DNA from: an uncultured Gammaproteobacteria bacterium
Lineage (GTDB): Bacteria; Patescibacteriota; Microgenomatia; Levybacterales; UBA12049
NCBI GenBank assembly: GCA_964497535.1
Contig: CAZCCG010000001.1
Location: 66,688-130,687 of the forward strand
Reading direction: 5' to 3'
DNA length: 64,000 nt
Below are positions 37,158-55,764 of the stretch, piece by piece (positions within the stretch are counted from its first letter, which is position 1; each line of letters begins with the position of its first letter). The notes beneath the pieces were generated by a model, which made no database searches, was not told the DNA's origin, and saw only the letters and a list, made by a program, of their open reading frames with translations. Both the position numbers and the translations under genes were made by a program.

Positions 37158-37490
37158 ATGAATCACTTACTCGCTCTTAGCATCAATGGACAACAAGTCC
37201 AGACTCCTGGAGGACTTCAGAATACCAGTAATGTAACTATTTCCTCTCTCATTTTTTTTGGAATTAATATGCTCATTTTTGCCGCTATTGCCTTGGCATC
37301 AATATTTTTGGTGGTATCAGGTGTGCAATGGATTATGTCAGGAGGAGATAAGCAAAAAATTGAATCAGCCCGAAAAAGAATTACACTGATTGTCACAGGG
37401 CTGATTATTGTTTTGGGAGCAGTACTGATACTCAACCTGGTAGGAGGAGTTTTTGGTATTAATTTCATGCAGGTACAGTTTCCCTCTTGA
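37158..37490 (+). CDS. TrbC/VirB2-like T4SS pilin.
   Basis: 110 aa. Two TM helices flank GVQWIMSGGDKQKIESARKRI. Confidence 0.6.
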   Translation: MNHLLALSINGQQVQTPGGLQNTSNVTISSLIFFGINMLIFAAIALASIFLVVSGVQWIMSGGDKQKIESARKRITLIVTGLIIVLGAVLILNLVGGVFGINFMQVQFPS

Positions 37491-37511
37491 CAAACTAAAG
37501 AAAAACTTACT

Positions 37512-37949: not shown

Positions 37950-38004
37950 AGATCTCTCCCCTTGTTATTGTTTTTATCACATCAACTTGTTACTATAATT
38001 ATAT

Positions 38005-38322
38005 ATGTGGGATAGCTGTGCGCCAAATGGAGTTGCAACAATACAATGTATTCCGGTTCTTATCAAACTTCTTATTAATGCTGCCTTTAGTTTTGTCGGG
38101 ATAACGGCACTTTTTTTCATCATCTGGTCCGGAGTTCAATTGGTGACAGCCTCAGGAGAGGATCCAAAACAAGTTGAAGGAGCACGAAAAACTCTGACAT
38201 TTGCTATTGTTGGACTTATTGTCGTTCTTATGTCATTTTTTGTAGTCAACTTTGTAGCCTTTGTCAGTGGAACTCCCTGTATTGCGCAATTTGATACCTT
38301 TACTCTCGGCAGCTGCCAGTAA
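38005..38322 (+). CDS. TrbC/VirB2-like T4SS pilin.
   Basis: 105 aa. SGVQLVTASGEDPKQVEGARKTL lies between two TM helices. Confidence 0.55.
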   Translation: MWDSCAPNGVATIQCIPVLIKLLINAAFSFVGITALFFIIWSGVQLVTASGEDPKQVEGARKTLTFAIVGLIVVLMSFFVVNFVAFVSGTPCIAQFDTFTLGSCQ

Positions 38323-38803: not shown

Positions 38804-39484
38804 TTAGGATCGAGGTTTACGTTGTACTATCTTTGTTAATCCAATTACTACCGCATCAATTCCTAATGGAATCAATAACAATATGCTTGCCTGTTTGAGA
38901 AACTCCATGGTGTGGTCAGAAAATAGTGCAGTGATCCAGGAGGACGGAATCCGAAAACCCGATATAAAAAATGCTGTACCAATCAAAAGCAGCGCTAAGG
39001 CAAATTCTACGGTTCCCTCCACATCTTTGCTGCTTGAAAACATCGTATTACCAATTTCAAAAACGATATAAAACAGAAGAATAATATTCCACGGAGCGGG
39101 AACAAGCTGTTGTGTTGGGAAGAGAAAATAAAATGAAGCAGCCAGAAGCAGGATAAATCCTACCAGAATCGGCGCGACACCAATCAGCGCACGGCGAAAC
39201 GGATCACACTGAGCAATCTGTACACTCCCCAACTTCACACTCTCCCCTCGCACTTGAGGAATAAATTCTATTTCACCAGTACGAACAAATAAAAGATTTG
39301 CTGTCAGGTAATGCGCGAGCTCATGGATGACAACACCGGGAAGAAACAGAAATGCCAATGCATATACTGACCCTACATGACTGTGGCTTATCCGCCAAAA
39401 AATAGTACTTAATGATTTTGAGAGGATGCGGGACAAGAAAAAAAGCGCCAACAACTCACCAATAAGTATTCCAATGAAATGCAT
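38804..39484 (-). CDS. Polytopic membrane protein with HExxH motif (putative intramembrane or membrane-embedded zinc metalloprotease).
   Basis: VVIHELAHYLTA lies within a TM region; 226 aa with about six TM helices. Confidence 0.45.
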   Translation of the reverse strand: MHFIGILIGELLALFFLSRILSKSLSTIFWRISHSHVGSVYALAFLFLPGVVIHELAHYLTANLLFVRTGEIEFIPQVRGESVKLGSVQIAQCDPFRRALIGVAPILVGFILLLAASFYFLFPTQQLVPAPWNIILLFYIVFEIGNTMFSSSKDVEGTVEFALALLLIGTAFFISGFRIPSSWITALFSDHTMEFLKQASILLLIPLGIDAVVIGLTKIVQRKPRS

Positions 39485-39563: not shown

Positions 39564-42398
39564 ATGCCAACAATCGAACAAGTAAGACCTCCCATCCAGG
39601 AAGTAGAACCCACTATAGAAACTCCTTCCGAACATAGAGCGTTGGTAGGATTTCAAGCACGGGTGCTCCTGGGAAATGAGGCATTAGATCCGAATAATCA
39701 TGTCGAGACAATAACCCCTGAGGCATTAGGAACCTTTGCCGGACGTAATTATGACATGTTGCAAGATGCTTCACAGAGAGAACGGCACTCATTTTGGCAG
39801 GAGACTCCTCATGAGACTCACCAAGCCCAAAAAGACGCGTGGGCAACCACATTTGCGGAAACAATTGCTTCTTCTCAACCCTTTTTCGAAACTGAAAAAG
39901 GACAACAGTGGATAGCAACACTGTCTCAGTTTGGCGTCACCAGTGCTTCCCCATCCACAGAGGAAATACATCACATATATGATTTGTATTTCTCATCCGA
40001 TTCCGATACGCCGGCACTCAAACAATTTGTCGGCAGAGTAATTGATACTTATACGGAAAATGGAACCCTTAACTATGCACGGCTCAAAACTGATTTGCCT
40101 GCCGTAGAATGGTTTTCCAATATTTTTGGCCATACCTCTTCGGAAGTCATCGGGCAAATGATTGATGCTGAGGCAAAACTAATTCAAAATCCCCAAACAA
40201 TTATTCAAGAAGCTTCCCAACTCACTCAGAATGGACAACCACGAAGTCGAATAAATGATTTAGAAGAACGGGAAGAAGAGTTACTTATATTCCTCACCGG
40301 CTCGTCTACTTCCTCTCAAACCCACGAGGATGTTGAGGAACCATATGCGGAACAAACTCCAGCAGAGGAACCAAACCAGACTGATATAGAAGCTGAAGCA
40401 ATACCTCTGGGACCACGTAGTGATTCAAGAAATGGACATGACGCAGACTCACTCAGAGAACCAGCACGAGGTGAATCTGATCACCCAGATACAGAACCTG
40501 CCGAAAAATCACACGAGGATGCAATCCCACCCCAACCTCTTGCACAACTCGGAACCGCAACAGGGGCAGAAACACACGAAACTGCAGAAGCAGCTCTCCT
40601 ACCTTACGCCGAAAAGCTTGCCGACTTATATATATCTCTGGGTATTAAAGATAAAGGCTATAAAGATATATTTGCAATCGGTATCCAGCACCTTACCACA
40701 GATACGCCAAGAGCTGATCAACAGAAAATGTTGAAAATATTACGTGATACTGCTATGGACATGGAACACTATTATGCTTCGGAACAGCAAGACCCCGATC
40801 AAGTTGAGAAAGCTACAAAAATGGCACGTGTCATTCGAAAACTCCTCAAATCATCCTCCAATCTTTCAGAAGAGGCACTCGAAACTGCATTTGCTGATAC
40901 CCCGCCCACTCCAGAGCAAAAACCCAAGCCGTTTCGACTCCGCCTACACCGTGAGGGAGTAGAAAATGATGCATTAAGAATAGTAATAGGAGGAAAAGAT
41001 GATATGCCGGAACCAGATATTGCACTTACGCCATACGCGCAGGACTTGAAAAACTTGCTTGATACCGGATGGATGCCTCGTTCTGCTGAAAGCCAGATGC
41101 TCACACCGCTTGTGGATTCTATTCGTAAGGGGATGCCTCTTGAGGAACAGCTCCTGCGCTATACCCAAATTCATACTGTTATATCAAGCATAGAAGAATC
41201 ACTTCGGGAATCCTCTCCGCCTACCGAGTGGCATATGACGCAGGTTGTCGAGATGAAAAATCTTGTTGAGGGATATATACAGGATATTCGAGAAATGAAG
41301 GGTAAACCCAGAGAAATAGCAACCACACATCCAGAACTAATTGCACCAGCCCAAGGAATTGGACAAATTGCCGAAGGTCTTGACCCTACCTATAGAGATC
41401 GTCTGAACAGTCTGTTAGAAGGCTTAACGGAACAATCATCTACAGAAGAGCGAGAACGTATTTTTGAAGAAATTCTTCATGTCACTTCTCTCTGGGATAA
41501 GAATTTTACCAATATGCAAAACTATAGAGATGAAGACAGTAAAGAATTTACTGCAGCAGGGCAGCAAAAAGCAGTTGCTCATAGAATTAGACAAGCAGCA
41601 GAAACAGCTCTGGAAGGGTTACGGCACGGACAAGCTGAACCATCAGAAGCAGTCGTGGCAGGTGAACCAGGACGAGAAGCACAACCGCAACTGCTTGCTT
41701 CCGGGGAATCTATTCAGGCGATCCTTGATACATTTAGACCCAGTGATGATAGGTTTTACCATGATAAGATACAATCAATATCACGACATTTAACAGCAGG
41801 CATTCAGGGGCATCCTACTCAACAAGCATTTTTCCTGCATGAAATCCATGCTATCACTGAGGAGATGGAAGGATTTTTTCAGGAAAATGCCAGAAGAAAA
41901 CCTGAATTTTCTCTGGCTCAGATAGAAAAAGCCCGGGCAATACGAGCAGCAGTAGAACAAGCACAGAGACAACTGAGACAAGAACAAGAAAACCACGAGG
42001 AACAAGCAGCATCTGATACTCCTACGCTGGAACCGTCGCAAATACATACAGCGGTAACAGACAGAGCCGGAGAAGACGAACCAATCCTTACTCTTGATGC
42101 AATACGAAAGGGAGACACAGTAGAAGAAGAACACTCATCAGAACCGCCGCCCCCTCCTCCATTACCTGTTGTTGAAGATGCTACTGACGAGGAGACAGAA
42201 CATATTGATGAAGAGGTAGAACTTAAGCATTCCCCTGATACCGATCCAGATGAAGAAATGGCAGAAGATTCTGAGTGGGAGGATGATCAACAACCGCAGC
42301 GGGGAAAAAATAAGGGAAGAAGTTTTATGAGGAATGGAAAACCACTAGACAAACGCAATGCCAGACGCGCTCGAGAACAGCAACGCCAATGGAATTAA
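39564..42398 (+). CDS. Large acidic hypothetical protein (944 aa), low-complexity, with C-terminal basic tail.
   Basis: Single ORF with high Glu/Asp/Gln content; no catalytic motifs seen. Confidence 0.45.
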   Translation: MPTIEQVRPPIQEVEPTIETPSEHRALVGFQARVLLGNEALDPNNHVETITPEALGTFAGRNYDMLQDASQRERHSFWQETPHETHQAQKDAWATTFAETIASSQPFFETEKGQQWIATLSQFGVTSASPSTEEIHHIYDLYFSSDSDTPALKQFVGRVIDTYTENGTLNYARLKTDLPAVEWFSNIFGHTSSEVIGQMIDAEAKLIQNPQTIIQEASQLTQNGQPRSRINDLEEREEELLIFLTGSSTSSQTHEDVEEPYAEQTPAEEPNQTDIEAEAIPLGPRSDSRNGHDADSLREPARGESDHPDTEPAEKSHEDAIPPQPLAQLGTATGAETHETAEAALLPYAEKLADLYISLGIKDKGYKDIFAIGIQHLTTDTPRADQQKMLKILRDTAMDMEHYYASEQQDPDQVEKATKMARVIRKLLKSSSNLSEEALETAFADTPPTPEQKPKPFRLRLHREGVENDALRIVIGGKDDMPEPDIALTPYAQDLKNLLDTGWMPRSAESQMLTPLVDSIRKGMPLEEQLLRYTQIHTVISSIEESLRESSPPTEWHMTQVVEMKNLVEGYIQDIREMKGKPREIATTHPELIAPAQGIGQIAEGLDPTYRDRLNSLLEGLTEQSSTEERERIFEEILHVTSLWDKNFTNMQNYRDEDSKEFTAAGQQKAVAHRIRQAAETALEGLRHGQAEPSEAVVAGEPGREAQPQLLASGESIQAILDTFRPSDDRFYHDKIQSISRHLTAGIQGHPTQQAFFLHEIHAITEEMEGFFQENARRKPEFSLAQIEKARAIRAAVEQAQRQLRQEQENHEEQAASDTPTLEPSQIHTAVTDRAGEDEPILTLDAIRKGDTVEEEHSSEPPPPPPLPVVEDATDEETEHIDEEVELKHSPDTDPDEEMAEDSEWEDDQQPQRGKNKGRSFMRNGKPLDKRNARRAREQQRQWN

Positions 42399-42477
42399 AA
42401 ACTCAACCGTAATCTCCTCTCCTCTTGACTTCTTATGAAATATATTGTCATACTTACTGTTGAAGGAGGTGATTGGA

Positions 42478-42861
42478 ATGCAAGATCAAACACAACAAAT
42501 TCCACCGGAAGTGAAATCTTTTCTTGAAGGTATCTTACAGGATGCCAATATGGTGACGTTGGATGACCAAATGAAAGAAGAGATGGTCAAAGAACTCTAT
42601 GTACGGCTGGATAACTTTATCACAGCAGCGATTGTCGATCATATGCCTGCTGACAAAGTTGAAGAATTTATCAAAATGAACGAGGAAAAAAAGTCCAAAG
42701 AGGACGTTGAAAAATTTGTTAAAGAAGTCATGCCAAATGCCCAAGAGGTATTTACCAATGCTTTCATGGAATTTCGTGATCTGTATTTAGGAGGAGTTGC
42801 TGCAAAACGGAATGAACCGGAAGCTGCAAACACAACCGTTCCATCTTCTTCTAAGAACTAA
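42478..42861 (+). CDS. Small acidic helical protein, partner of the downstream giant protein (paralog of the ORF at 48473).
   Basis: RBS aaggagg before the ATG at 42478. IPPEVKSFLEGILQDANMVTLDD...FIKMNEEKKS...MPNAQEVF aligns with the 48473 protein. Confidence 0.55.
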   Translation: MQDQTQQIPPEVKSFLEGILQDANMVTLDDQMKEEMVKELYVRLDNFITAAIVDHMPADKVEEFIKMNEEKKSKEDVEKFVKEVMPNAQEVFTNAFMEFRDLYLGGVAAKRNEPEAANTTVPSSSKN

Positions 42862-42866
42862 CTACC

Positions 42867-45800
42867 ATGGCAGAAATCAACCAACCAGGTGGTCCTGAAG
42901 TACGATATAATCCTGAAAGAACAGATTCTCGTGAAGCAGTTGTTCATGCTGCACGGGTTGGATTTGATGAATTTAATAAACAAGCGAGAACACTTGAAGC
43001 AAAAAAAACTGATGAACTTACTCCAAAGGAACGCCAATTTCTTCGTGACCGCAATGTTTTCAAAAGTGGTATTGATGAAACGATAGACCACAAAGACGCC
43101 AATGGTAACCCAGCTGCGCGAGATAGCATTCCAACCGACTTTGAAAATAGAGAAAATCCGCAAGGCCCACAATTTCGACAATATGAAGGGATTCCTGTCG
43201 GAAGAGTAATTGGGTTCCTCCACGAGAAAATTGGGGCATTAGAAGCAGACCCCGCTAGCGACAAAATGTACATTGCAGAACTCAAACAATCCTATGATGT
43301 TTTGAGAAGAAATACTAAGGCATATTCTGAAAGGAGAAGTGTCTCAAATGGAAAGTTTTTCAGTCGCGTCGAAGAAGAGGCACGGAGAATTGCTCAAGAT
43401 CCTTTAGTAGCAACCCATGACCAAAATGGCAACTCTGATCTGGTAGCAAATTACTATTATGCGCTCAATGAGATTCGAACCAGACAGGAACTGATATTCC
43501 CCAAAAATAAAAACGTAGTACTCCCCCCTGAGGAACCTGATACAAAATTATTGCCGCCAGGACAACGACCGGCAGAATTACCTCCGGGGAATCATCCCCC
43601 AGAGCTTCCTCCTGGACAAAAACCAGGAGAACTAGGACCCGGTCAACATCCACCGGAACTTCCTCCGGGGGTACATCCTCCTGAATTACCCCCAGGCCAA
43701 AAACCTCCGGAACTACCACCCGGGCAGAAACCGCCGGAATTACCGCCGGGAGTTAAACCACCAGAATTACCACCTGGAGATCGTCCTCTAGAACTTCCGC
43801 CCGGTAGACCAACACCGGAAGATGTAGACCAGATCAGGCGTGATTTTGCTATTGTTAATCGCCACGCAGATGTAGAAAAGCGAGCACGAGAATACGCAGA
43901 GCAAAAAGTCCGTGAAGAATATAAAAAAGGCAGTTTCTTAAATCCCAAAGATATGTTCCGTAAAATAAAGCTTCGTGTCGGAGAAGAATATTACCGCCAA
44001 AAATATATCCAGGAAGCTCGCACGGCAATGCTTGCCAATAATAATTCATATATGGACATGGATGCAGCGACTCTCGGACTAACAGACGCAAAACATCGAA
44101 TAGATGAAGAACGTCAAGCAGGGACAGCAAAAGCAGAACAAGTAGCACTTCAAGCGCGGGAAAGAATCCAAGTAGGAGGAACTGAAGTCAAAGAAGCACA
44201 CGGCGCGCTTAAGGATGCGATTATGAAGGACATCATTCGTCCAGTTATTGAGGGCAAAATTACTGACCCAGCACAAGTACAAGATGTTATCAAGCAATTT
44301 GTAGAAGCAAATAATACTGATCCGGATGTCCAGGAAATATTTGGCAAAGACGCCACCCAGTATGGCAAACAGGCAGAATACTATGCGTCCAATTTGTTAG
44401 AAACAGGAGCATTGGTGAGAGAAGATGTAGCAGCTCATCGATATGCTATGGAGCAGATTGACGAAGTCGTGCATATCCAATTAGGTAATCCTTCATGGGC
44501 AGCGGAAACACAAGCTAATTTCAATACTGCTGACAAATTAATTGCAAGGCTTCAAAATGGACCATTGAGAGGATGGGCCGCAAATCCGGCAGCCATCGGG
44601 CTAGCAGCCTCTGCGGTAGGATTTTTTGGTACGAGATTACCCGGCAGAGTAGGACAAGCAGCTGGTGCAGTACCTGGTGTTGGAGTACTCATGGGAGCAG
44701 GATTTGCAGCACTTCGTCGCAACATGGATCTGAAACATGACATGGAAGCCCATCGTGTCGAACGTGCATATAACATGCAGGTTCCAAAAGATGCAAAACG
44801 GCGGGAAGCACTTGAGCAATTTGCCTATAAAACCGCTTCAGTGAATGAGTTACTCGAAGGAGGACAAGACAGAGAAGGAATGCTCGGCGGCGACTCACGG
44901 GGACTAAAAGAATTAGCTCAACTCAATCTATCTATTAATAATCCGAATACTCCAAACCCGGCAGAAACAGATCTACGAGCACTGATGAACCGGGAACATT
45001 TACTCCGTCGTATGTCAGAAGTCCAAGCGCGTCTGGATTTCTCCGCCCAGGAAAAAGTTGATTTGATAACATTTGAAACCCGCGAGCAGGTCGAACAAGG
45101 AAGACTGGAACTCATCAAAGGACTTGCCCAAGCTCGACTGGCATTGAAAAATGCCGGCATGGATGAAGATACCATGAAGGCAGACCTTGATCGGTACGGT
45201 AGTCAATGGACCAAATCATTTATACAGGACCGCGATCAAGAAAACAGAAAGTTTGCCAATTATCGAGTGAAAGAATCACTAAAAGCTGGCGCTTTTGCCG
45301 GCGCAATAGGATTGGGAGGAGTATTCGTCAGCCAGGAAGCTCTTGCCGGCGCAGGAAGAGTCATCGGCAAGCATGTGAATGATACGATACTTGAGCACGG
45401 CATCAAAGGCATCGGAGGAATCGCAGAAACTGTTAAATCCCATCTTCCAACACCAGGATCAGTACCTGCAGCTGTAGGAGCAGTGGCAGAAGCAGGAAGA
45501 AATACTCAACAGGCAATTGGATCTATTGACGTAACTCCAGGTGCGGTTGCAAATAAGGTTGGTGAGGTAGTAAATGGTATACGATCCACAGATATTCCCG
45601 GTGTTGTCTCAGGAGCAGCAGCTGAGGCAGGAAATAAAATTGGCAGTACGAATCCTGAACAAATACTCAGAAGCATGGGAGATTTCCTGACCGCAGAAGC
45701 ACCTGTTCCTTCCTCTTCTGAAATCCATGGATTAATCAGCGCAGACCTGCTCAAACAAGCATATGAAAATCCGCGTAATTTCCCAATTTTTGATGCAGCC

Positions 45801-48356
45801 GGGAACCATATTGCCTCATTTGCAGTCAGCCCTGATATTTCAGAGGACGGCGGACGAGCAGTAACACTTCTGAGTACCGCCCTAGATGCAGAAGGGAATA
45901 AAGTTCAACTCCCTACCCCGCCGATGTGGGTTGACCAGGATGCAAAAGGAGGATATCGTCTCATCGCATCAGGAGGAGAATATAATATGCCACAAGGACT
46001 GAAAGATGTAATCAAAACATTTGACCACCAGCGAAGTCCTCAACATGATCTGCGGGCATTGATGAGGCAAGCAGTTGACAGTTATTACGGCCGGGGAGGA
46101 CCAGATACTGTTATTGAAGGTCCGGATTCTATGCGGGGAATGCTCACTACAGAACATGGAGATATCCGGTATGACATCTCTCATGAAGGATATGACAAAT
46201 GGGCAAAAGTTGCAGCAGAAGCCGGAGATACCTTGCGTGATGGAGAAATTGGCAAGATGTCTATCCAGGATGCACTAACCGGACAACAAATACATGGGTT
46301 TGTAAATAAAGACAATATAGCCCGCTTCCCACTGGATCATTATGGTAATGAAGCTATTGGAATTGACCAGTGGAAAGCGATGGCACAAAAGCTTTCGGTT
46401 GACGGATGGATATTTCACGACAATACCGGTGCCGTAGTACAACCGCAGGATATTACTCCCCATATGGAACTGTTTGGTACACCCCCCGAAGCAACACAAT
46501 ATGTACCAAAAGATATTGTTGATGCACCGGTAGTCACAACTGCTTTTGCTCCTCGGAACCCGCTTGAAGCAATGGAACGGCCGGATGAGAAAAAGAAACC
46601 GGATGACCAAGAAGGGGAAACTCCACCCCCTGTTACAACCCCTCCATCAGGAGAAACGCCGACAGATCAAACACCTCCTACACCACCAGTCACGACGCCT
46701 CCCCCAGTTCCTCCGGGGGGAGATTCCACCGGAACAACGACTGAGGTAACAGTACCGACAAATACATCTACGGAAGTGGTCACAACCGGCCAGGATAAAA
46801 CAGGAGAAAAAACCCAAACACGTGTACCAATAGAAGAACTTCTTACCTATGAGCAAATGAAAGAGGCGGGATATACAGATGAAGAGATTCAAGAGCACGC
46901 ACAGAAAAAAGAAAAAACGCCCCCAACACAAGAGACAACTGAAACTACCATCCCCATATCCGAACAAGAACCACTCTATCGATATGAAGCAGCAGTGGCA
47001 ACCAAAGCATCTACCCAGCATCCGGATACCAATGAGGATACGGCAATTACCGATGGAGGAAAAGGAGTTATTGCAGTATTTGATGGGTCAGGAGGAAATA
47101 GTGCAAGTATACTGGGGAAAGAATCTTTTGAGACAGCTCTTGCAACACTTCCTCCTCGCGCTACCAGAGCTGAAATTGAAGCGGCAATGCAGGCCGGATG
47201 GAAAACCTCTCAAGAAAGAATCCAGGCAGATGAAGCGGCGAATCCGGATCACAAAGGAATGGCATCAACCGGTACTGTTGTAAAAATATTCATGGAGAAT
47301 GGCAAACGCTATGCCATGGTGCTACAAGCCGGCGACAGTAGAGGAAGTTTTGTACAGAAAGATGGGACGCTACGACAAGTCACGAAAGATGATGCCGCAA
47401 GACTCGGCAATGACAGCCAAATGCCCTCAATTGATGTCGTAGAAGTAACAGATAATGACGCATTCTTTATAACCACCACCAAAGGTGTCCATGAACAGTT
47501 TACTCCTGAGGAAATGGCTGCAACTGCAAAGGGACATAAATCTGCGCAAGAGTTAGTAAGAAGACTTGTTATGATAAAAGCGCTTGAAGCACGCAGAAAG
47601 AACATACCCATTCCTGACGATATGACAGCAGCGGCAATTAAATTGGAGGGTATAGATACTTCCAAAACAGGAAAAACTGAGGAAGAACAACAAAGGGAAC
47701 GAAGAGTAGAGCTAGGTAGTATAGTAGACATAATTCGGTCACTTAAAGAGAAGGGAGAAGCTACAACCAACCCGTTGTTCTTTACTGGAGCTAATGGTGA
47801 ATATGGGTGGGAAGAGGTTCGGATGGGATCTCCTGTTAAGGCAGATAGTGACCACGCCTTTCGCGGGTATCTCATGGTAGAACCAAATGACATTCCGCTA
47901 GCTATGCAGATTCTCCTCAAGAAAGCTCCTCAGCTGCTTGCCCAAGGTCAAGGAGTCGATGCCAAATTCTTACTGATGAAATTACCTCAATTCGCAGATG
48001 TCGCAGAACGAAATAAATATATCAATAATCGTGATAACTTGGCTAAGTATGAAGGCCTCACACCTGAAGATCCCCGCATTGCCCTATATGGAGATTCACA
48101 GGCAGCTATTGAAGCGATTTTGACAGTTCTGGCCGAGGATCCGCAGTGGCAAGATATTGAGCAACGAAGACTAGATGCGTTTGGAGGATCTGATCATACT
48201 CCCCGAAGACCCGGAACTAATGCCTTAGTACACAAGGGGAGAGAATATAGATCCTTAAACTATGGAAACATACGCGGGTATTCTGAAGATGAAGCTGCAG
48301 ATCCCGCCTGGAGAGATAAAAAAATCGGTGAACAGACCGTACCGTTAGCTTCGTAA
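42867..48356 (+). CDS. Giant protein (1829 aa): shared N-terminal region, 10 tandem ELPPGxxPP repeats, Gly-rich hydrophobic segments, C-terminal PP2C-like Ser/Thr phosphatase domain.
   Basis: PP2C motifs seen by eye near 47.0-47.6 kb: HPDTNED, VFDGSGGN, GMASTGTVV, QAGDSRGSF, VTKDD, VTDNDAFFITTTKGV. The N-terminal roughly 700 aa are collinear with the 48808 protein. Confidence 0.6.
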   Translation: MAEINQPGGPEVRYNPERTDSREAVVHAARVGFDEFNKQARTLEAKKTDELTPKERQFLRDRNVFKSGIDETIDHKDANGNPAARDSIPTDFENRENPQGPQFRQYEGIPVGRVIGFLHEKIGALEADPASDKMYIAELKQSYDVLRRNTKAYSERRSVSNGKFFSRVEEEARRIAQDPLVATHDQNGNSDLVANYYYALNEIRTRQELIFPKNKNVVLPPEEPDTKLLPPGQRPAELPPGNHPPELPPGQKPGELGPGQHPPELPPGVHPPELPPGQKPPELPPGQKPPELPPGVKPPELPPGDRPLELPPGRPTPEDVDQIRRDFAIVNRHADVEKRAREYAEQKVREEYKKGSFLNPKDMFRKIKLRVGEEYYRQKYIQEARTAMLANNNSYMDMDAATLGLTDAKHRIDEERQAGTAKAEQVALQARERIQVGGTEVKEAHGALKDAIMKDIIRPVIEGKITDPAQVQDVIKQFVEANNTDPDVQEIFGKDATQYGKQAEYYASNLLETGALVREDVAAHRYAMEQIDEVVHIQLGNPSWAAETQANFNTADKLIARLQNGPLRGWAANPAAIGLAASAVGFFGTRLPGRVGQAAGAVPGVGVLMGAGFAALRRNMDLKHDMEAHRVERAYNMQVPKDAKRREALEQFAYKTASVNELLEGGQDREGMLGGDSRGLKELAQLNLSINNPNTPNPAETDLRALMNREHLLRRMSEVQARLDFSAQEKVDLITFETREQVEQGRLELIKGLAQARLALKNAGMDEDTMKADLDRYGSQWTKSFIQDRDQENRKFANYRVKESLKAGAFAGAIGLGGVFVSQEALAGAGRVIGKHVNDTILEHGIKGIGGIAETVKSHLPTPGSVPAAVGAVAEAGRNTQQAIGSIDVTPGAVANKVGEVVNGIRSTDIPGVVSGAAAEAGNKIGSTNPEQILRSMGDFLTAEAPVPSSSEIHGLISADLLKQAYENPRNFPIFDAAGNHIASFAVSPDISEDGGRAVTLLSTALDAEGNKVQLPTPPMWVDQDAKGGYRLIASGGEYNMPQGLKDVIKTFDHQRSPQHDLRALMRQAVDSYYGRGGPDTVIEGPDSMRGMLTTEHGDIRYDISHEGYDKWAKVAAEAGDTLRDGEIGKMSIQDALTGQQIHGFVNKDNIARFPLDHYGNEAIGIDQWKAMAQKLSVDGWIFHDNTGAVVQPQDITPHMELFGTPPEATQYVPKDIVDAPVVTTAFAPRNPLEAMERPDEKKKPDDQEGETPPPVTTPPSGETPTDQTPPTPPVTTPPPVPPGGDSTGTTTEVTVPTNTSTEVVTTGQDKTGEKTQTRVPIEELLTYEQMKEAGYTDEEIQEHAQKKEKTPPTQETTETTIPISEQEPLYRYEAAVATKASTQHPDTNEDTAITDGGKGVIAVFDGSGGNSASILGKESFETALATLPPRATRAEIEAAMQAGWKTSQERIQADEAANPDHKGMASTGTVVKIFMENGKRYAMVLQAGDSRGSFVQKDGTLRQVTKDDAARLGNDSQMPSIDVVEVTDNDAFFITTTKGVHEQFTPEEMAATAKGHKSAQELVRRLVMIKALEARRKNIPIPDDMTAAAIKLEGIDTSKTGKTEEEQQRERRVELGSIVDIIRSLKEKGEATTNPLFFTGANGEYGWEEVRMGSPVKADSDHAFRGYLMVEPNDIPLAMQILLKKAPQLLAQGQGVDAKFLLMKLPQFADVAERNKYINNRDNLAKYEGLTPEDPRIALYGDSQAAIEAILTVLAEDPQWQDIEQRRLDAFGGSDHTPRRPGTNALVHKGREYRSLNYGNIRGYSEDEAADPAWRDKKIGEQTVPLAS
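43549..43812 (+). repeat. 27-nt tandem repeat (about 10 units) encoding (E/L)LPPGxxPP inside the 1829-aa protein.
   Basis: Periodic ccggaacttcctccggg variants read directly; the protein shows PPGQRPAELPPGNHPPELPPGQKPGEL continuing to PPGRPTPE. Confidence 0.85.
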
Positions 48357-48472
48357 TATAGTGTTTATCAGCTCCTCATAAGCTAACTATAAGCCAGCTA
48401 TTATTGACATACGTGGTACCACCTGTAATACTTGAATAGGCAAAGGTGGTGATTTTTGTGGATGAACAAACA

Positions 48473-48799
48473 ATGAAAATTCCGAAAGAAATTCGAGACT
48501 ATTTGGAAAATCTGCTGAAAGATGCGCAGATGACTCCGCTGGATGAGGAAATGCACGAAGAAATGATTATGCAGCTCTATCGTCGACTCGATACCTTTCT
48601 CAATGCAACCATTATGAATCACCTTCCTCCAAAGCATATGGACGCATTTATAAAGATCAATGAGGAAAAGAAGTCTCAGGCAGAAATTGAGCAATTCTTA
48701 AAAGAAAACATGCCCAATGCTCAAGACGTTTTTGCACAAGCGTTTGTTGATTTTAGAAAAACCTATCTGGGAGATTCAAAATCAAAAGATAGTAACTAA
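48473..48799 (+). CDS. Small acidic helical protein, partner of the downstream giant protein (paralog of the ORF at 42478).
   Basis: RBS aggtgg before the ATG at 48473. IPKEIRDYLENLLKDAQMTPLDE...FIKINEEKKS...MPNAQDVF. Confidence 0.55.
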   Translation: MKIPKEIRDYLENLLKDAQMTPLDEEMHEEMIMQLYRRLDTFLNATIMNHLPPKHMDAFIKINEEKKSQAEIEQFLKENMPNAQDVFAQAFVDFRKTYLGDSKSKDSN

Positions 48800-48807
48800 T
48801 ACAACCT

Positions 48808-51800
48808 ATGCCAGACATAACAGCACCTGATCGACTGCCCCCCGCACCGGTCCATCAAGCAGATCGGAATATTGTTCGTGGCCCAAACCGACCCTTACCT
48901 CCCGCACCAATCCGTCAGGAAGATAGAGAAAGTGACCACAGAGAAGACCACCAAACAGTAACCAATAATCATGATAACGGCCAGCCACAAGATGAAAAAA
49001 TTCGAGTTAACATTATCAATACTCAAGAAGAAGCAAGTAAAGCAGGGAAAGAACGTGCTGAAGAGCGCAAGAATGAGATCCTCCGACATCCTCCCGGATG
49101 GAGTATTGTTAATTGGGCACGACGCATTGGTATGCGATGGATTGAAGGTGGTTGGGTCAGTATTCAAAAAGACCGATATATGGAAGTTATGCGCCGAAAT
49201 GGCTCAACACTTCTCACTACGGATATGGCACGGGGAGCAGCAGCTATTACCCAAGCCGAGAGAGCACAACATCAACAAAAACAAGAAGCTGTTATTGAAC
49301 GGTTTCAAAGCCGTAATGAAACAGATCTTGCAAACAGAGGAGAACTCAAACGTACACTTGATCGACCAGAAAACCAAGAAGTACGCAATTTGATTGTCAA
49401 TGAAATCCTCAGGCCTATTACAAATGGTACTGTTACCAATCCCGATCAAGTACAGGCACAGCTCGCCCAATTTGTTCTCAACCATATTGACAATCCTCTC
49501 GTCCGAGAATTCTTTGGTGCCGAAGCAAACATGTTTGGCGATCGTGCACAGTTCTTTGCAACTGATTTGTTCGAAACAGGTCAACGAGTCAAGATAAAGA
49601 TGGAGCAGGAGAATAAAAGCCTAGGCGATTTAGATCATCTTATTGAAGTCACCGTCGGACTTGCCAAAGGAGGAGCAATGACGGATACCCGTGGAAATAT
49701 AGACCAGTGGGTTGCAGCGGCAAAACGGCGACAAGCAAATATACTTGCAAGCGGAGCACAGGGACTAGGATTCCATGGAATTATTTCCAATCCTGCTGTT
49801 GTCGGTATTGCAGGAAGCTTGGCTGCGCAAGGGTTGCTACGAGGGGCAGGAGCAGCAGGACGAGCATTGGATCTTCCGTCCCTAGGTGTTGGCTCTTTAA
49901 TGGCAGGAGTAGCAGCTGGTGTCAGAGCTCGAAGCGAATTCCGCGCTGACCGGGCAATGAGTCAAGTACAACGTGTTGCATATGGACAAACGCCGGAAGC
50001 AAATGCGAGAAAACATCAGGAGTTGGCCAGATTTGATTACCAAACAGTACAAGCGGAAGAGCTCCTGCGAGGCGGAGGAACAGACTCTATTAGCGGTGTC
50101 CCCCGTAGAAGTTTTGATGACCTGTTGACAGCAGACTTAACCCTTGAAGCGAATAGAACCCAGGTCTTCAGCCGTATCGCAGAAATCGACAGCCGGATTG
50201 AGTACGGCAATATGAACAATGTAGATCTGATTTCCTATTCCGGTAAAGATGTTATGGAACGCCAACGAATGCAGATGGATCAGGAAATTGCACGAGCCCG
50301 AATTACTCTCAGACGAACAGGCCTGTCTAACACAGAAATTGATAGCGAAATTGACCGACTCAAAACTGAGGCAAACAGAAGACTCATACAAAATAGAGAA
50401 GCCCAAGATCAGCAATTCGAACAAGCACGGATGCGCTATGCCCTCAGACAAGGTGGTCAAGCAGCATTGTTTGGAGCTGTCTTTGGACTTGCATCCCAAG
50501 AAGGAGTTGCTCTTGCTTCTCGAGCTGCATCTCATATAGCAGATAATGTCCCAATTGCCGGGGGATTGAAAAATATTGGCCTCTTTCGACAAACCGGAAG
50601 TACTATTGCAGAAATTCCCTGGAACAAAGTTATGGAGGCAACCGGACATGATAACCTCAGAACTGATATTTCGATAGCCTCTTTGGGACTCAACCTCAAT
50701 AAAGTCCAGGAACTCTATCAGCATCCGGGAAATATGGATTTCCAAATGCCTGATGGGTCACACTATACCCTGGCAGTTGGAGATAGTTACCAGGCAAGTC
50801 TTCTCGACGCAGCAGGAAATCGTGTTCCCACCGGGCCGCTTGAAATCACTCAGGAAGGACATGTTATTTCCTGGGGACCAGTTCCTGACCAACTCAAATC
50901 AACGCTCAAAGATACGTTGGGCTGGACCATCAATGAAAATGTACCCAACCCCGATTATGATTTGGCAAAGGGAGTAACCCGCTGGATGGAAGCTGTCCAG
51001 AATGGCAATGCGGAACACATCACCGGTATCCATGGCAACATGATCTACGACTTGCAACCGGATGGACAGATGTCGGTAACCCTCAATCCGACAACTGACA
51101 ATGTGATGATCCATGGATTTGGCACCATGACCGATGGCAAAGGAATGATTGATGTTGATCCGACATTCAATGGCAATGCAGAGGCATTTGCCAATCATGG
51201 TGATCTGATCCGCAACGAATTGGGGGCAGCCGGATTTCAGGTAGATGTCGAAACTATTCCGGGGCATGATGAGACTGTTGATATTGCAGATTATCTGCGA
51301 GAGAAGGGCGAACTCTCCCCAACCATGAGAGAACTCTGGCATGATAACCAAACTCCCATGCGGTTTGTAAATGGCCGTTGGATCGGCGCAGACGGTAAAG
51401 AATTACAACTCTACCATCACGTCAAAGATGTAGGTCCAGTGACACCACAACAAGCACTAAGCCACATCAAAGAGCAGATCCCTCCCCAGATGCTTCGTAA
51501 CCCGCATGTGCAACAATTAATGCAGGAATTACAAAAACCAGGGACACTGCAAAGTCTTACTCCTGAGAAAGTACAACAACTGGTTGGACAACTTCCTCCC
51601 GAAATGCAAAAAACTCCTCAAGTACAAGCCGCAGTTGAGGAATTCAATAAAGTATTCCAGACCAAACAACGGGTCGTTGAAGTAGACTTTGCTAAAATGG
51701 TCAGCCAATTCCAACGAGGAGTGTGGCGCAATTGGGATTATTCTGTTGATAATCAATATAACCGTGTGGTCAATGACATTGTTGCGCAGCCGGATGGCAC

Positions 51801-53505
51801 ACGACTCTATAGAAATTTTGAAGTGATGATCACCCCCAATAAAGCCCTGGATTCAGCCAGACAAGCAGTGGTATTTAGCCTGGACAAACATCCAGAACTA
51901 CTTACAGGCAAACTCGACTTTGACGTCAATTCCGAAGAGGCAAAGATGTTCTTCCAACTTGATGAAAATGGGAATCCCATTGCCAATAGTTTTGGTCCGC
52001 AAAATTATCAAAAAGCTGCATTTATAGAAATTGCGCATATGCAACCAAATGGTTTGAGAACTATTCTCGCAACGTCACAGGGACCGGGCATTGATCAGTG
52101 GCATCACAAAACTCCCGATCATCAGATATTCCATGTCACTCCCCCTTCTTCAACAGAACTCATCCCGCCGGAAGCTCCCCTTCCCGGAGATACACCGTGG
52201 CTTGTCACTCCCGGCCGCACTCCGAGACATCCGTTGGAAAGAACAACCCCAGGGTTACCTCCTATAGAACCCCCAGTTAGAGAACGGTACCCGGGACTAC
52301 CAACATACGAAGGCAACTTTCCCCCTGGTAGTCGCATGAAGAATATTTTAAGAAGAAAAAACCAAGGAAGGATAGAACCGGGAAGAATTCAAGTAAATGA
52401 TAGTGAAGGTCAACGAGCACTCCAGGAAGCTAAAGACGCATTTGGACAAGCAGATAGTATTTATTTTGTTCTAGGAGGCGCTATTGGTGATTCTGTTATT
52501 GCCACCGCATATTTACGAGGAATCGAAGAAGCTCTCCGACAACAAGGCAGGAATACTCCAATAACAATTATTGCGAATCAAGATTATGGAAATCTATTTG
52601 ATGGCCTTGCCAGAGGAAATGTTAGTATCATAAAAGCCCCCCGAGGAACGGGATTGTCCACTGCTGAAAGAAACATTGCAACCGCTGCATCATCATCTCC
52701 CTTAATTATTGATTTTGAACATTATAGAGACGAAAATCCAGCTATTACAAAAGACCTACTTACAGGGACAACAACGATAAGCAATTTACTTGGCCCTTCT
52801 ATTGAACTCTATAATAATAATACCGATAGGGAAAGAAGATATAGCCATGTTATCGAAGATCTATTTTCTTTAAACAAAGATTCCATTCCACCTCAGGAAG
52901 CACGGCCATCTATTCCGCCGCCTGCAAATAAGGATAGGCTCTACCAAGCTGTTGCTCAACGATGTGGAATCGATATGAATAACCAAAACCAAATTGGAAT
53001 TGTCGTTGAAGGATCACGAGCAGGCAAACGATATAGTTTGGACAACTGGACACAAGTTATTTCTGAAATATCTGCACAAAAGCCTGGATATCAGTTCAAT
53101 ATACTTTATAACGCAAATAATCCACAATCAGGCTATGGGAGAGTAGATATTGAACGGGCTATTGCGCGTGCCGGGCTTACGAATGTGCACATAATTGAAG
53201 CTAACCTAGAAGAATCGGTTTCTCTTATGGATAAACAAAAATTAGTATTGTCTAATGATACCGGCTTTGCCCACGTTGCAGCGTCGATTGAAAATGGACC
53301 AAAAGCAGTGACAATCTTTACTCCGAAGAATTTTCCACCAGTCTTCTGGGTATCGAGTGATAGACAAATCCCTGTTATGATATCCTCCACTCAGGAAGCT
53401 AGACTCCCGGATGTAGACATCAATGTAGATGATGAGAGACAAAAACTCATTAATAAAATCCCTCCACGACAAGTAGCACAAGCAGCTATTACTCAGCTCC
53501 CTTAA
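48808..53505 (+). CDS. Giant protein (1565 aa): N-terminal region paralogous to the 42867 protein, C-terminal GT9 (heptosyltransferase-like) glycosyltransferase-fold domain.
   Basis: GT9-like blocks near 52.4-53.4 kb: YFVLGGAIGDSVIATAYLRGI, GKRYSLDNWTQVI, LVLSNDTGFAHVAASIENGPKAVTIFTP. N-terminal blocks (NPDQVQ, LFETG, Gly-rich segments) align with the 42867 protein. Confidence 0.6.
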   Translation: MPDITAPDRLPPAPVHQADRNIVRGPNRPLPPAPIRQEDRESDHREDHQTVTNNHDNGQPQDEKIRVNIINTQEEASKAGKERAEERKNEILRHPPGWSIVNWARRIGMRWIEGGWVSIQKDRYMEVMRRNGSTLLTTDMARGAAAITQAERAQHQQKQEAVIERFQSRNETDLANRGELKRTLDRPENQEVRNLIVNEILRPITNGTVTNPDQVQAQLAQFVLNHIDNPLVREFFGAEANMFGDRAQFFATDLFETGQRVKIKMEQENKSLGDLDHLIEVTVGLAKGGAMTDTRGNIDQWVAAAKRRQANILASGAQGLGFHGIISNPAVVGIAGSLAAQGLLRGAGAAGRALDLPSLGVGSLMAGVAAGVRARSEFRADRAMSQVQRVAYGQTPEANARKHQELARFDYQTVQAEELLRGGGTDSISGVPRRSFDDLLTADLTLEANRTQVFSRIAEIDSRIEYGNMNNVDLISYSGKDVMERQRMQMDQEIARARITLRRTGLSNTEIDSEIDRLKTEANRRLIQNREAQDQQFEQARMRYALRQGGQAALFGAVFGLASQEGVALASRAASHIADNVPIAGGLKNIGLFRQTGSTIAEIPWNKVMEATGHDNLRTDISIASLGLNLNKVQELYQHPGNMDFQMPDGSHYTLAVGDSYQASLLDAAGNRVPTGPLEITQEGHVISWGPVPDQLKSTLKDTLGWTINENVPNPDYDLAKGVTRWMEAVQNGNAEHITGIHGNMIYDLQPDGQMSVTLNPTTDNVMIHGFGTMTDGKGMIDVDPTFNGNAEAFANHGDLIRNELGAAGFQVDVETIPGHDETVDIADYLREKGELSPTMRELWHDNQTPMRFVNGRWIGADGKELQLYHHVKDVGPVTPQQALSHIKEQIPPQMLRNPHVQQLMQELQKPGTLQSLTPEKVQQLVGQLPPEMQKTPQVQAAVEEFNKVFQTKQRVVEVDFAKMVSQFQRGVWRNWDYSVDNQYNRVVNDIVAQPDGTRLYRNFEVMITPNKALDSARQAVVFSLDKHPELLTGKLDFDVNSEEAKMFFQLDENGNPIANSFGPQNYQKAAFIEIAHMQPNGLRTILATSQGPGIDQWHHKTPDHQIFHVTPPSSTELIPPEAPLPGDTPWLVTPGRTPRHPLERTTPGLPPIEPPVRERYPGLPTYEGNFPPGSRMKNILRRKNQGRIEPGRIQVNDSEGQRALQEAKDAFGQADSIYFVLGGAIGDSVIATAYLRGIEEALRQQGRNTPITIIANQDYGNLFDGLARGNVSIIKAPRGTGLSTAERNIATAASSSPLIIDFEHYRDENPAITKDLLTGTTTISNLLGPSIELYNNNTDRERRYSHVIEDLFSLNKDSIPPQEARPSIPPPANKDRLYQAVAQRCGIDMNNQNQIGIVVEGSRAGKRYSLDNWTQVISEISAQKPGYQFNILYNANNPQSGYGRVDIERAIARAGLTNVHIIEANLEESVSLMDKQKLVLSNDTGFAHVAASIENGPKAVTIFTPKNFPPVFWVSSDRQIPVMISSTQEARLPDVDINVDDERQKLINKIPPRQVAQAAITQLP

Positions 53506-54400: not shown

Positions 54401-55735
54401 ATGGAGCAACATCCTATCCCTCAAGACGTTACCGGATTTCAATTCCGCCTCATTGGAGACATGACAATCAAGCAATTTGCCTATGTCGCAGCCGGTGTTA
54501 TCTTGGCGTATCTGTGCTTTAATCTTCCTCTTTCACCGCTCATAAAAATACCCTTGGCTCTTTTGATTGGAGGCTTTGGTGCGGCGTTGGCATTTGTTCC
54601 CATTGAAGGACGACCATTGGATGTTATGGTAACTCATTTTGTCAAAGCGTTATTCACCCCCACTCAGTATACCTATCAAAAAGTAGGAGGCAAACTCTCA
54701 ATGACCTCGGTACATATGGTTACGCCCCAAAAGACAATGGTTGCAGTCCACACTGCTCCCGAATGGAAACAACAAAGATCTGATGATTCCCGAAAAAAGT
54801 TGCAGATGTATTTACAACAACTTCCCCATGCAACCCAAAATAAGCTTGATCAAAAAGAGCAAGTATTCTTTGAGTCGATGGCTCATGGATTTACTCAGCT
54901 CCCTTCTGTCCCCCAGCCAGCAATGCCGCAGCAACCGTCTGAGGGAAAACAGCAAGGATCTGGCACGTATTTTGTATCGGTCACAGGAGATCAACCGCAA
55001 GAGCAACCTCAACCACAGGCGCAACCGCCGGTTCCCGCGCCTGTTCCAACTCCCCCTCAACAGGCAGATGACACAAAAAATGAACAGGCACTTATTGCAC
55101 AAGAACAGGCAATTCAACAGGCATTAGCCGAAGCCAAAAAACAGGAGGAATTACAAGTAGAAGCACACCAAGAGACTGCTCAAACCCATGAGAAAGTGAA
55201 TGAACTTGAGGGACAACTCAATGAAGTTATGGTACAAAAACAAAAATTGGAAGAGCAACTATTGAGACTGCAAAAAAAACTTGATACTACCCATCCCCAG
55301 GTCTTTACGCCAAGCACTGCAACGGTGCAGCCCCAAGAACAACCTGCTCAAACGCAAAATGTACGCAGAATTCCCCGTGGTATGGAGACAAAAGTAGGAA
55401 CTCCTATGACTCCTGATGTGCCAAATATTATTCTGGGGATCATTAAGGATCCCCGAGGCAATGTGCTTCCTGGTATTTTGGTGGAAGTGAAAGATGCCGA
55501 GGGAAATCCGGTTCGGGCATTTAAAACCAACCAGCTGGGACAATTCGCATCTGCTACCCCGCTTCTCAATGGTACCTATACCATTGAATTTGAAGACTCT
55601 ACAGAAAAGAATACATTTGCTACAATTCAATTAGAGGCAATCGGAGCAATCATGGAACCGATTGAAGTAATATCCAATGACAAACGGGAAGATTTGAGAA
55701 AATCACTGTTTGGAAAACCAGGAGAAAAAGTTTAA
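54401..55735 (+). CDS. T4SS-associated membrane protein: VirB3/PrgI-like N-terminus, Gln/Pro-rich coiled-coil, C-terminal carboxypeptidase-regulatory-like beta-sandwich.
   Basis: N-terminal hairpin TM pair (AYVAAGVILAYLCF, LALLIGGFGAALAFV) as in VirB3/PrgI. C-terminal IILGIIKDPRGNVLPGILVEVKD...GTYTIEFE resembles the CarbopepD_reg fold. Confidence 0.45.
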   Translation: MEQHPIPQDVTGFQFRLIGDMTIKQFAYVAAGVILAYLCFNLPLSPLIKIPLALLIGGFGAALAFVPIEGRPLDVMVTHFVKALFTPTQYTYQKVGGKLSMTSVHMVTPQKTMVAVHTAPEWKQQRSDDSRKKLQMYLQQLPHATQNKLDQKEQVFFESMAHGFTQLPSVPQPAMPQQPSEGKQQGSGTYFVSVTGDQPQEQPQPQAQPPVPAPVPTPPQQADDTKNEQALIAQEQAIQQALAEAKKQEELQVEAHQETAQTHEKVNELEGQLNEVMVQKQKLEEQLLRLQKKLDTTHPQVFTPSTATVQPQEQPAQTQNVRRIPRGMETKVGTPMTPDVPNIILGIIKDPRGNVLPGILVEVKDAEGNPVRAFKTNQLGQFASATPLLNGTYTIEFEDSTEKNTFATIQLEAIGAIMEPIEVISNDKREDLRKSLFGKPGEKV

Positions 55736-55764
55736 AGATTAAAGTGTAAAACTTTTCATTACAT

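Follow-up and report, generated by a model that had tools for sequence, protein, structure and literature searches.

The 64,000-nucleotide stretch of DNA analysed here (referred to as the window; positions 66,688 to 130,687 of contig CAZCCG010000001.1, assembly GCA_964497535.1, from an uncultured bacterium placed in the Patescibacteriota, Microgenomatia, Levybacterales) contains two tandem gene pairs, each consisting of a small gene and, directly downstream, the gene of a giant protein. The first pair comprises small partner 1 (127 amino acids (aa), 42478..42861) and giant A (1829 aa, 42867..48356), the second small partner 2 (108 aa, 48473..48799) and giant B (1565 aa, 48808..53505). All four genes are on the + strand, and the small genes end 5 and 8 nucleotides (nt), respectively, before the giants. 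A protein of 944 aa, encoded at 39564..42398 (+), precedes the pairs. These five open reading frames (ORFs) lie exactly where an earlier note on this DNA had put them. That note also described the 944-aa protein as acidic, which is borne out by an Asp plus Glu content of 18.5% and a net charge of -82. Promoter-like sites with an extended -10 are found before each small gene (42425-42454 and 48404-48432), and no terminator-like site is found on the + strand between the genes; both statements concern consensus matches only. The surroundings are a type IV secretion system (T4SS) locus of the Gram-positive type described for Patescibacteria.

What do the two giants have in common? They align at 25% identity (E=2e-47) over residues 329-855 of giant A and 69-596 of giant B. 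A profile search with a conservation map for giant A, and alignment of giant B to giant A and to further relatives, place a conserved module at aa 329-857 of giant A (43851..45437, +) and aa 69-601 of giant B (49012..50610, +). The earlier note had taken the giants for collinear paralogues over roughly 700 N-terminal residues; the paralogy stands, but the shared part is closer to 530 aa and begins at different offsets in the two proteins. Giant A starts with an N-domain (aa 1-210) and a Pro-rich PPELPPG repeat (aa ~225-315), both of which are absent from giant B. Its module is followed by a middle region, a PP2C-like domain and a lyase-like domain. In giant B the module is followed by two mid-region domains, common to 16-30 family members, and by a domain of glycosyltransferase family 9 (GT9).

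The module profile was run exhaustively with HMMER against 1.84 billion cluster representatives and matched 673 of them at E<=1e-3, 355 at E<=1e-10 and 136 at E<=1e-30. By this measure the module defines a family of at least 673 cluster representatives, whose members are mostly 1200-2900 aa long (median 1782 aa). Taking medians over the best 150 members, the module spans residues 265-773 and leaves 961 residues after it. Several motifs recur within it (NR..D..KRA.E.AE, NP..W.RK, YFATDLLE, NPA..GAA.SL, and VEQGRL). The module is predicted to be all-helical; an AlphaFold2 model of six sequences is helical as well, but of low confidence (pLDDT 53) and too poor to classify. No sequence relative was found in Pfam, NCBIfam, PADLOC or the Protein Data Bank (PDB).

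The module contains three Gly/Ala-rich, weakly hydrophobic segments, in agreement with the Gly-rich hydrophobic segments noticed earlier; in giant A they span aa 571-589, 598-616, and 804-827. The first two form a hairpin with a conserved NP before it and RR after it, while the third lies ~190 residues further on and is preceded by basic residues. Their Kyte-Doolittle averages are 1.2-1.7, compared with 2.2-3.7 for genuine transmembrane (TM) helices in proteins of the same locus (pilins, HExxH protein, and SLT protein). One family member gives a weak Gly-zipper match in Pfam at a Gly/Ala-rich segment. Sequence and hydropathy reveal no stretch resembling a Sec signal at the N-terminus of either giant. 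The conserved NP with which the first Gly-rich helix begins is reminiscent of helix-breaking motifs that site-2 proteases need.

The C-terminal parts of the giants, here called tips, differ. Residues ~1200-1565 of giant B (52405..53502, +) match the GT9 (heptosyltransferase) family PF01075 with 37.7 bits (E=1.8e-9; cut-off 22), and the family member P0110 reaches 46 bits. TIGR02193 and TIGR02195, which describe heptosyltransferases I and II, match with 28 and 26 bits against equivalog cut-offs of 185 and 135. The GT9 assignment proposed earlier is thereby upheld, and the tip is predicted to be a GT9-family enzyme, not an equivalog of the lipopolysaccharide (LPS) heptosyltransferases. It is 34-50% identical, in local BLAST segments, to eleven other representatives and 83% identical to its near-orthologue P0010. 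In the family alignment, IGD near the start, GKRY..NW in the middle, and SNDTGFAHVAA near the end are invariant or nearly so. The NDTGxAHxAAA motif of the GT9 tips aligns, by family profile, to the ADP-heptose-binding motif of WaaF (1psw); IGD and GKRY..NW may correspond to D13 and K192 of HepI. Patescibacteria have been described, as a general statement and not for this organism, as monoderms (PMC12857230), and LPS is therefore an unlikely acceptor. A stand-alone 572-aa GT9-like gene, 27% identical to the tip of giant B, follows a GT9-ending giant in another locus (L011, 14450-16168).

Giant A is more complex. Its PP2C-like domain (aa ~1385-1600; 47019..47666, +) passes the Pfam cut-off (PF00481, 27 bits versus 20.3), which fits the earlier assignment, but only positions 34-139 of the 255-position profile are covered, corresponding to the N-terminal half, and the domain is degenerate. 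It also matches the N-terminal half of Mycobacterium tuberculosis PstP in the PDB (1txo, E=5e-9) and NCBIfam Stp1 (E=5e-10); since the latter match reaches 39 bits against an equivalog cut-off of 230, the domain is not an Stp1 equivalog. PP2C-bearing family members keep NED, FDG(M/V)GG, GDSR, TSDGVHDN, and DDxSA, with TSDGVHDN present in ten other members. Giant A retains NED, FDGSG, and DDMT, whereas TTTKGVHEQ replaces TSDGVHDN, so that a metal-binding Asp is now Lys. In addition, four residues are deleted after DGSG and the flap is missing through a deletion of ~55 aa. The complete set of metal-binding Asp residues (I ED, II DGxGG, VIII DG, XI DN/DD) is not found in giant A, where motif VIII reads TKG; this numbering of the PPM motifs is the one we take as established, and the C-terminal half of the PstP reference is likewise presumed. 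The orthologue in the sister locus L019 has the same degenerate state, and the region is 80% identical, which points to a domain that is conserved yet probably non-canonical. To judge by these substitutions and deletions, the PP2C-like domain of giant A probably lacks canonical activity.

A second domain at the end of giant A, which the earlier note had missed behind the PP2C motifs, occupies aa ~1613-1829 (47703..48353, +) and has the phospho-Ser/Thr-lyase fold of OspF, SpvC, and HopA1. It was found by fold comparison only, with 9-13% identity to structures of the OspF/SpvC/HopA1 phosphothreonine-lyase type and Foldseek TM-scores of 0.3-0.4; Pfam and the PDB gave no sequence match. The family alignment of this domain contains invariant K, R, Y, and D residues, and Pfam detects no kinase domain in the members that carry it. 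Apart from this case, the fold has been seen in secreted effectors and in lanthipeptide dehydratases.

How variable are the tips across the family? Star clustering on the last 350 aa of 142 members gives a GT2 cluster of 35 members, a cluster of 19 short proteins with no recognisable enzyme, a GT9 cluster of 15 that includes giant B, and a PP2C cluster of eight that includes giant A, the remainder falling into ~45 smaller groups or singletons. The GT2 assignment is above the Pfam cut-off in P0138 (33 bits) and weaker in P0043 (only match), P0105 (best match), and P0015 (second match). Counted by domain-wise BLAST, GT9 occurs in 23 members and PP2C in ten; lyase-like tips are found in six members and in the giant of locus L007. 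Three proteins (P0119, P0137, and P0021) carry GT9 and then PP2C in tandem, two domains that the window splits between two paralogues. A survey for the same region fused to other tips, which the earlier note had proposed for related genomes as a check, yields GT2, GT9, PP2C, and lyase-like domains.

The exchange of tips can be followed between close relatives. P0014, with a GT9 tip, and P0015, with a GT2 tip, are 68% identical over residues 1-1203 and 1-1174, respectively, and unrelated thereafter. Likewise, P0080 and P0076 are 74% identical over residues 1-1338, and P0016 and P0017 are 52% identical over ~1290 residues, before the similarity ends. Replacement of cassettes is seen between proteins that are 68-84% identical in the constant part. 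The nearest neighbour by module has the same tip type in 27 of 87 cases; the library had been clustered at 50% identity, which merges proteins similar over their full length and therefore inflates the fraction with a different tip, while the clean breakpoints are real regardless. Across the family, a constant part of ~1200 aa around the ~530-aa module is combined with exchangeable C-terminal enzyme cassettes.

The two small partners are 51% identical (E=2e-41), confirming that they are paralogues, and both belong to DUF5663 (PF18908): partner 1 scores 28.6 bits (E=2e-6) and partner 2 25.7 bits (E=2e-5) against a gathering score of 23.7. For a wider comparison, related loci were located with an alignment of six close members and by look-up of single representatives, giving 19 independent loci (seven from GTDB genomes, six from JGI metagenomes, and six looked up per representative, including the most divergent of the top 150). 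Loci are labelled L and representative proteins P. Related loci are found in metagenome-assembled genomes of Patescibacteria, including one that bears the name Candidatus Levyibacteriota. In 18 of the 19 the giant is immediately preceded by a DUF5663 gene, at a distance of 0-13 nt or overlapping in the loci read outside the window. In the nineteenth, L006, no DUF5663 ORF was found in a contig that ends ~400 nt upstream of the giant. The Pfam match extends to the partners in the loci L015, L016, L018, and L019 and in that of P0157. No additional DUF5663 copies were found in the 64-kb window or in the flanks of the loci.

Is the small protein an immunity protein or a chaperone? The earlier note had left both options open. 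The cognate pairing it proposed is found, one partner to one giant and homologous whatever the tip type, but the immunity option fits poorly. Partners from loci with GT9, GT2, PP2C, lyase, or unassigned tips are 55-65% identical to partner 1. Between the window and L019 they are 87% (partner 1) and 82% identical, as conserved as VirB4 (86%); the TrsD-like protein is 83%, the giants are 65% and 74%, and PrgI is 69% identical. An immunity protein would be encoded downstream of the tip and change with it. The partner does neither and is therefore judged not to be one, and no variable or cognate immunity gene was found downstream of the tips. The DUF5663 partner looks more like a chaperone or adaptor. 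A DUF5663 protein of the cultivated Saccharibacterium S. epibionticum has been matched by structure to the trigger-factor C-terminal domain, DUF2059, and LTXXQ (Spy/CpxP-like), all of the helical chaperone type (Wang 2023 Table S2).

Which other genes accompany the pair? The most faithful neighbour, more so than VirB4, is a homologue of a HExxH membrane protein, which adjoins the DUF5663-giant pair in 13 of the 19 loci. In the window this polytopic protein of 226 aa is encoded at 38804..39484 on the - strand, head-to-head with the region of the pairs. It has a HELAH motif, six strongly hydrophobic segments, and a weak match to Peptidase_M50 (E=0.003, below cut-off), which makes it a candidate for a site-2-protease-like enzyme. 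The physical link with T4SS genes noted for the window is seen more widely: pilins, PrgI, TrsD-like protein, or VirB4 are in view in 11 of the 19 loci. Written out in full, the gene order runs regulator, four pilins, HExxH protein, DUF5663, giant, PrgI, TrsD, and VirB4. It is complete in L008 and L015, lacks the regulator in L007, and holds in L009, L014, and L019 as far as contigs or flanks extend. Eight loci have the pilin array upstream (seven with four pilins, and L014 with two in view), and the PrgI-VirB4 core lies downstream of the giant in L005-L009, L014, L015, and L019, L009 showing only a truncated PrgI at the contig end. The pair sits between pilins and PrgI-VirB4 in at least seven independent loci, with VirB4 identities of 52-74%. 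The arrangement with two pairs and the 944-aa protein is common to the window and L019 only.

Genes for phospho-signalling enzymes recur around the family. Directly downstream of the giants in L016 (7181-11062) and in the P0157 locus (5629-6636) are genes of the APH/fructosamine-kinase type, one of them encoding 1293 aa, and in L018 (6740-9825) a PP2C_2 gene and a Pkinase gene adjoin the giant.

In the window, the flanking genes are those named in the earlier note. Upstream is an array of four VirB2-like pilin genes (35207..38322, +; NCBIfam NF045849), whose products carry Sec-type signal peptides. Downstream is the core of PrgI/VirB3, TrsD/TraC-like, VirB4, and SLT/VirB1-like genes (54401..62127, +), identified with Pfam. 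A TrbL/VirB6 homologue (28101..29696, +; PF04610, E=1.9e-7) and an OmpR-type regulator complete the locus, in which no relaxase was found. Models of anti-phage defence in PADLOC matched none of the components. Comparison of the module with the window VirB6, and separately with a 1201-aa protein encoded beside it, led to rejection of a relationship with either.

How might the pairs act? On an assessment that stops slightly short of evenly balanced, the giants could be T4SS cargo that acts on the host bacterium. This reading is favoured because the giants combine an N-terminus unlike a Sec signal with marginally hydrophobic Gly-zipper helices, a dedicated partner, tips that use cytoplasmic substrates, and a location in a pilus-forming T4SS. 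The GT-B, GT-A, PP2C, and lyase enzymes need nucleotide sugars or phosphoproteins, which are cytoplasmic. Translocated membrane effectors typically have TM segments of reduced hydrophobicity, and in the prePAAR effectors of the type VI secretion system (T6SS) such helices are shielded by Eag chaperones. A comparable logic applies to these effectors with Eag, to the translocators of the type III secretion system, and to LXG toxins with their Lap partners.

A more specific version is put forward tentatively, and as a whole is doubtful: the pairs would be the cargo of the Patescibacteria T4SS, and the module a new chaperone-solubilised domain for export and membrane insertion, possibly released by a site-2-protease-like enzyme, that injects interchangeable glycosyltransferases and phospho-Ser/Thr-erasing enzymes into bacterial hosts. 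For the favoured reading of T4SS cargo, the most likely mechanism would run as follows. The small acidic helical DUF5663 protein would bind the constant module, keeping its semi-hydrophobic helices soluble and off the membrane of the producer, and the complex would be passed to the surrounding pilus-bearing T4SS. After export to the host bacterium, the helices of the module might insert into the host membrane and leave the enzyme cassettes to work in the cytoplasm of the host. There, giant B would use a host nucleotide-sugar to glycosylate a target of the host. The lyase-like domain of giant A might bind phospho-Ser/Thr proteins or irreversibly dephosphorylate them, with the PP2C-like domain perhaps limited to phospho-binding. 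The adjacent HExxH protein may process the giant within the NP/Gly-rich helices, as site-2 proteases do, although this is speculation.

Several observations weigh against cargo delivered by the T4SS. Direct evidence of secretion of the giants is lacking, and Pfam and further family scans found no VirD4-type coupling protein in the window. In L002, L010, and L012 the pair retains the HExxH protein alone among the genes of the T4SS locus, and recG, rnc, and rpsP follow the giant; the divergent loci L016, L018, and that of P0157 have no T4SS genes within their visible flanks. In S. epibionticum ML1 the DUF5663 paralogues SEML1_0162, which is essential, and SEML1_0163 have infB, fmt, and def as neighbours and are a long way from the T4SS cluster (Wang et al. 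2023, Tables S1/S2). Glycosyltransferases are the commonest tips (~58 of 142), and these would also suit glycosylation of the producer's own surface or pilins. Finally, the PP2C domain of P0109 and P0112 is N-terminal of the module, and with an enzyme in that position the module is not simply an N-terminal leader. The earlier picture of a constant N-terminal delivery region with a swappable C-terminal enzyme is correct as regards the swapping, which is family-wide, but not for such members.

These points have to be set against other explanations of the same loci. The giants could stay in the producer as scaffolds docked at the membrane or the T4SS, where their cassettes would modify the cell's own exported parts, such as the VirB2-like pilins; the diversity of tips would then parallel the hypervariable islands for glycosylation of pilin and flagellin in other bacteria. 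We regard this as unlikely, though it is the main rival and deserves to be taken seriously, given that the tightest linkage of the pair is to the pilin array and the HExxH protein, not to VirB4, and that GT2 and GT9 tips dominate. The GT9-family BAHT enzymes TibC and Aah heptosylate secreted adhesins in the cytoplasm, and the APH-type kinase genes after the L016 and P0157 giants, taken with the HopA1-like fold, recall the LxmK/LxmY dehydratase pair (9dk1). However, housekeeping modifiers rarely need a translationally coupled small partner or a 500-aa module of semi-hydrophobic helices, the pilins have Sec-type signal peptides of their own, and tips with several enzymes in tandem, like the clean replacement of cassettes, are more characteristic of effectors. 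Moreover, the pilins remain constant in number and type (four) while the tips change. A scheme without any secretion, in which the giants serve membrane-associated protein modification as large clients of DUF5663, a housekeeping chaperone, and the T4SS is an incidental neighbour in one lineage, would account for the S. epibionticum genes and for the divergent members without visible T4SS neighbours. It is rendered quite improbable by the gene order conserved in at least seven independent loci at 52-74% VirB4 identity and by the one-to-one pairing with giants without spare DUF5663 copies in the window.

The remaining two explanations are given very little weight. As in polymorphic toxins, a variable C-terminal domain sits on a constant region next to a small gene, which could suggest a classical toxin directed against competing bacteria and neutralised at its tip by an immunity protein. 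Here, the small gene is upstream, homologous regardless of tip, and as conserved as VirB4, no downstream gene varies with the tips, PADLOC and toxin families give no match, and the tips are not the usual nucleases, deaminases, lipases, or muramidases. This reading, which we consider highly improbable, is already largely refuted. It would be just as surprising if the giants were structural channel subunits, that is, 'extended VirB6' proteins with a large hydrophilic extension. They are encoded inside a T4SS locus, a survey has rarely detected VirB6 in Microgenomatia (PMC12102498), and extended VirB6 and F-type TraG proteins do have variable C-terminal domains (PMC12857230). Yet the window already has its bona fide TrbL/VirB6, hhalign gives the module a probability of 0.2% of being related to it, and the module has three weakly hydrophobic segments where VirB6 has five or more. 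Nor would enzyme tips, or two divergent copies with 25% identity, be expected of a channel subunit.

To return to the giants as T4SS cargo, the pairs can be compared with several known systems; in kind they would be a further form of polymorphic effectors with chaperones and would not amount to an entirely new principle. The prePAAR effectors of the T6SS that rely on Eag (DUF1795), such as Tse6-EagT6, also have a small dedicated partner encoded beside a large effector, exchangeable C-terminal enzymes, and N-terminal Gly-rich, weakly hydrophobic helices, which are thought to need shielding and later to insert into membranes. Unlike them, the giants belong with another secretion system, have no demonstrated relation in sequence or fold, and are found in no PAAR, Rhs, or VgrG context; they have no downstream immunity gene, and their tips are unlike the usual toxins. 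The LXG toxins and Lap proteins of the T7SSb (type VII secretion) in Firmicutes offer a monoderm parallel, with small helical partner genes upstream and a helical constant domain that carries variable tips. By contrast, the loci of the giants lack LXG, WXG100, Esx, and immunity genes, and the constant part is about five times larger and contains hydrophobic helices. The X-Tfe effectors of Xanthomonas and Stenotrophomonas are likewise modular enzymes encoded near a T4SS; they are bacteria-targeting cargo, as is proposed for the giants. X-Tfe proteins have a C-terminal XVIPCD signal, downstream X-Tfi immunity genes, and VirD4 dependence, none of which was seen for the giants.

The enzyme domains and the overall layout also invite comparison. 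For the fold at the end of giant A, the comparison covers the OspF/SpvC/HopAI1 lyases, HopA1, and the lyase domains of class III/V lanthipeptide synthetases (LanKC and LxmY); in contrast to OspF-type lyases, the domain is fused to a 1600-aa protein and the likely host is a bacterium. The GT9 domain of giant B resembles WaaC/WaaF and TibC/Aah in its Pfam and TIGRFAM matches and in keeping the NDxG-H-AAA nucleotide-sugar motif. It differs from WaaC/WaaF in its equivalog score (28 bits versus 185) and in its fusion to a giant protein. Like extended VirB6 and F-plasmid TraG, the giants are large, are encoded in a T4SS locus, and combine a membrane-associated N-terminal portion with a hydrophilic C-terminal portion that varies; unlike those, they have no TrbL/VirB6 homology, fall short in the number and strength of their TM segments, and share the locus with a separate VirB6.

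According to the literature, the role and cargo of the Patescibacteria T4SS are unknown (PMC11665869, PMC10633639, PMC12857230, PMC12102498), and reviews treat effector delivery by it as speculation. The system is retained throughout Patescibacteria, and the one species studied by genetics requires it for epibiotic growth. In a survey devoted to T4SS loci of Patescibacteria, only parts of the machine are listed and no substrate is named, and none of the papers searched mentions DUF5663. For these reasons, the giants appear to be a previously undescribed family of Patescibacteria, as far as checked. With a constant core, interchangeable enzyme tips, and a small partner of their own, they are the best candidates so far for what the T4SS of this group handles. 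A widespread effector-like family inside T4SS loci offers definite proteins, a partner among them, for experimental testing, and suggests that the parasite may target glycosylation and phospho-signalling in its bacterial host. Part of the hypothesis is amenable to genetics, as DUF5663 is essential or fitness-relevant in the cultivable S. epibionticum, where one DUF5663 gene is essential and the other gives a growth defect (Wang et al. 2023). Just upstream of SEML1_0162-0163, between infB and fmt/def, is SEML1_0161, an essential hypothetical protein of 767 aa (Wang et al. 2023). The family member P0060, also 767 aa long, was considered as its counterpart and rejected, being a contig-end fragment.

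Turning to the other genes of the window, the 944-aa protein gave no match in Pfam, NCBIfam, or PADLOC and no internal repeats by BLAST, and it is unlike the giants and the ORFs of the other loci compared. A homologue (46% identical) is found at the same position in L019 only, and on these comparisons the protein is lineage-specific. The 1201-aa protein next to VirB6 (29698-33303, -) has a single C-terminal TM helix and no family match. A homologue is found at the same place in L011 (BLAST E=7e-109), and in L015 a 974-aa minus-strand gene takes its position, a correspondence by position only; the protein may be another unrecognised component of the T4SS locus. Three paralogous genes of ~120 aa of the 23S_rRNA_IVP type (four-helix bundle) at 33412-33777, 36712-37086, and 38364-38735 are interleaved with the regulator and pilin genes, and homologues recur in varying positions in L004, L007, L008, and L019. 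The longest VirB4 ORF (56390-58657) overlaps the TrsD-like gene by 44 nt and its exact product is absent from the protein collection; the true start of VirB4 is probably further downstream.

An island of 65-73% GC is present at 53562-54200 and contains a 146-aa ORF (53700-54140, +) with a GC content at third codon positions of 0.88, compared with 0.33-0.38 in the neighbouring genes and 43% GC in the genome. The ORF has a promoter-like site of its own (TTGACT-17-TATACT, extended -10) and a strong hairpin terminator, and it matched nothing in Pfam, PADLOC, or plasmid collections. A counterpart, also GC-rich, is found at the same place in L019 (14857-15252), its C-terminal ~95 aa being roughly half identical by eye, and the GC-richness is thus maintained and not due to fresh transfer. 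Host-like codon usage, recurrent host-derived transfer, and RNA structure are ideas as to its cause. In L009, a 2.4-kb island of 55-71% GC (5600-8000) between the pilin array and the HExxH protein has minus-strand ORFs of 557 and 267 aa, and the C-terminal part of the latter resembles the GC-rich ORF of the window (32% identity over 76 aa, pairwise E=3e-5). The first ~450 nt of the window are GC-rich too (0.56-0.64 versus 0.43 overall). Elsewhere in the window, two class A penicillin-binding proteins are encoded in tandem at 7408-12098, and the stretch 21327-27956, ahead of the T4SS locus, holds a tmRNA gene (21327-21749, -) and seven clustered tRNA genes.

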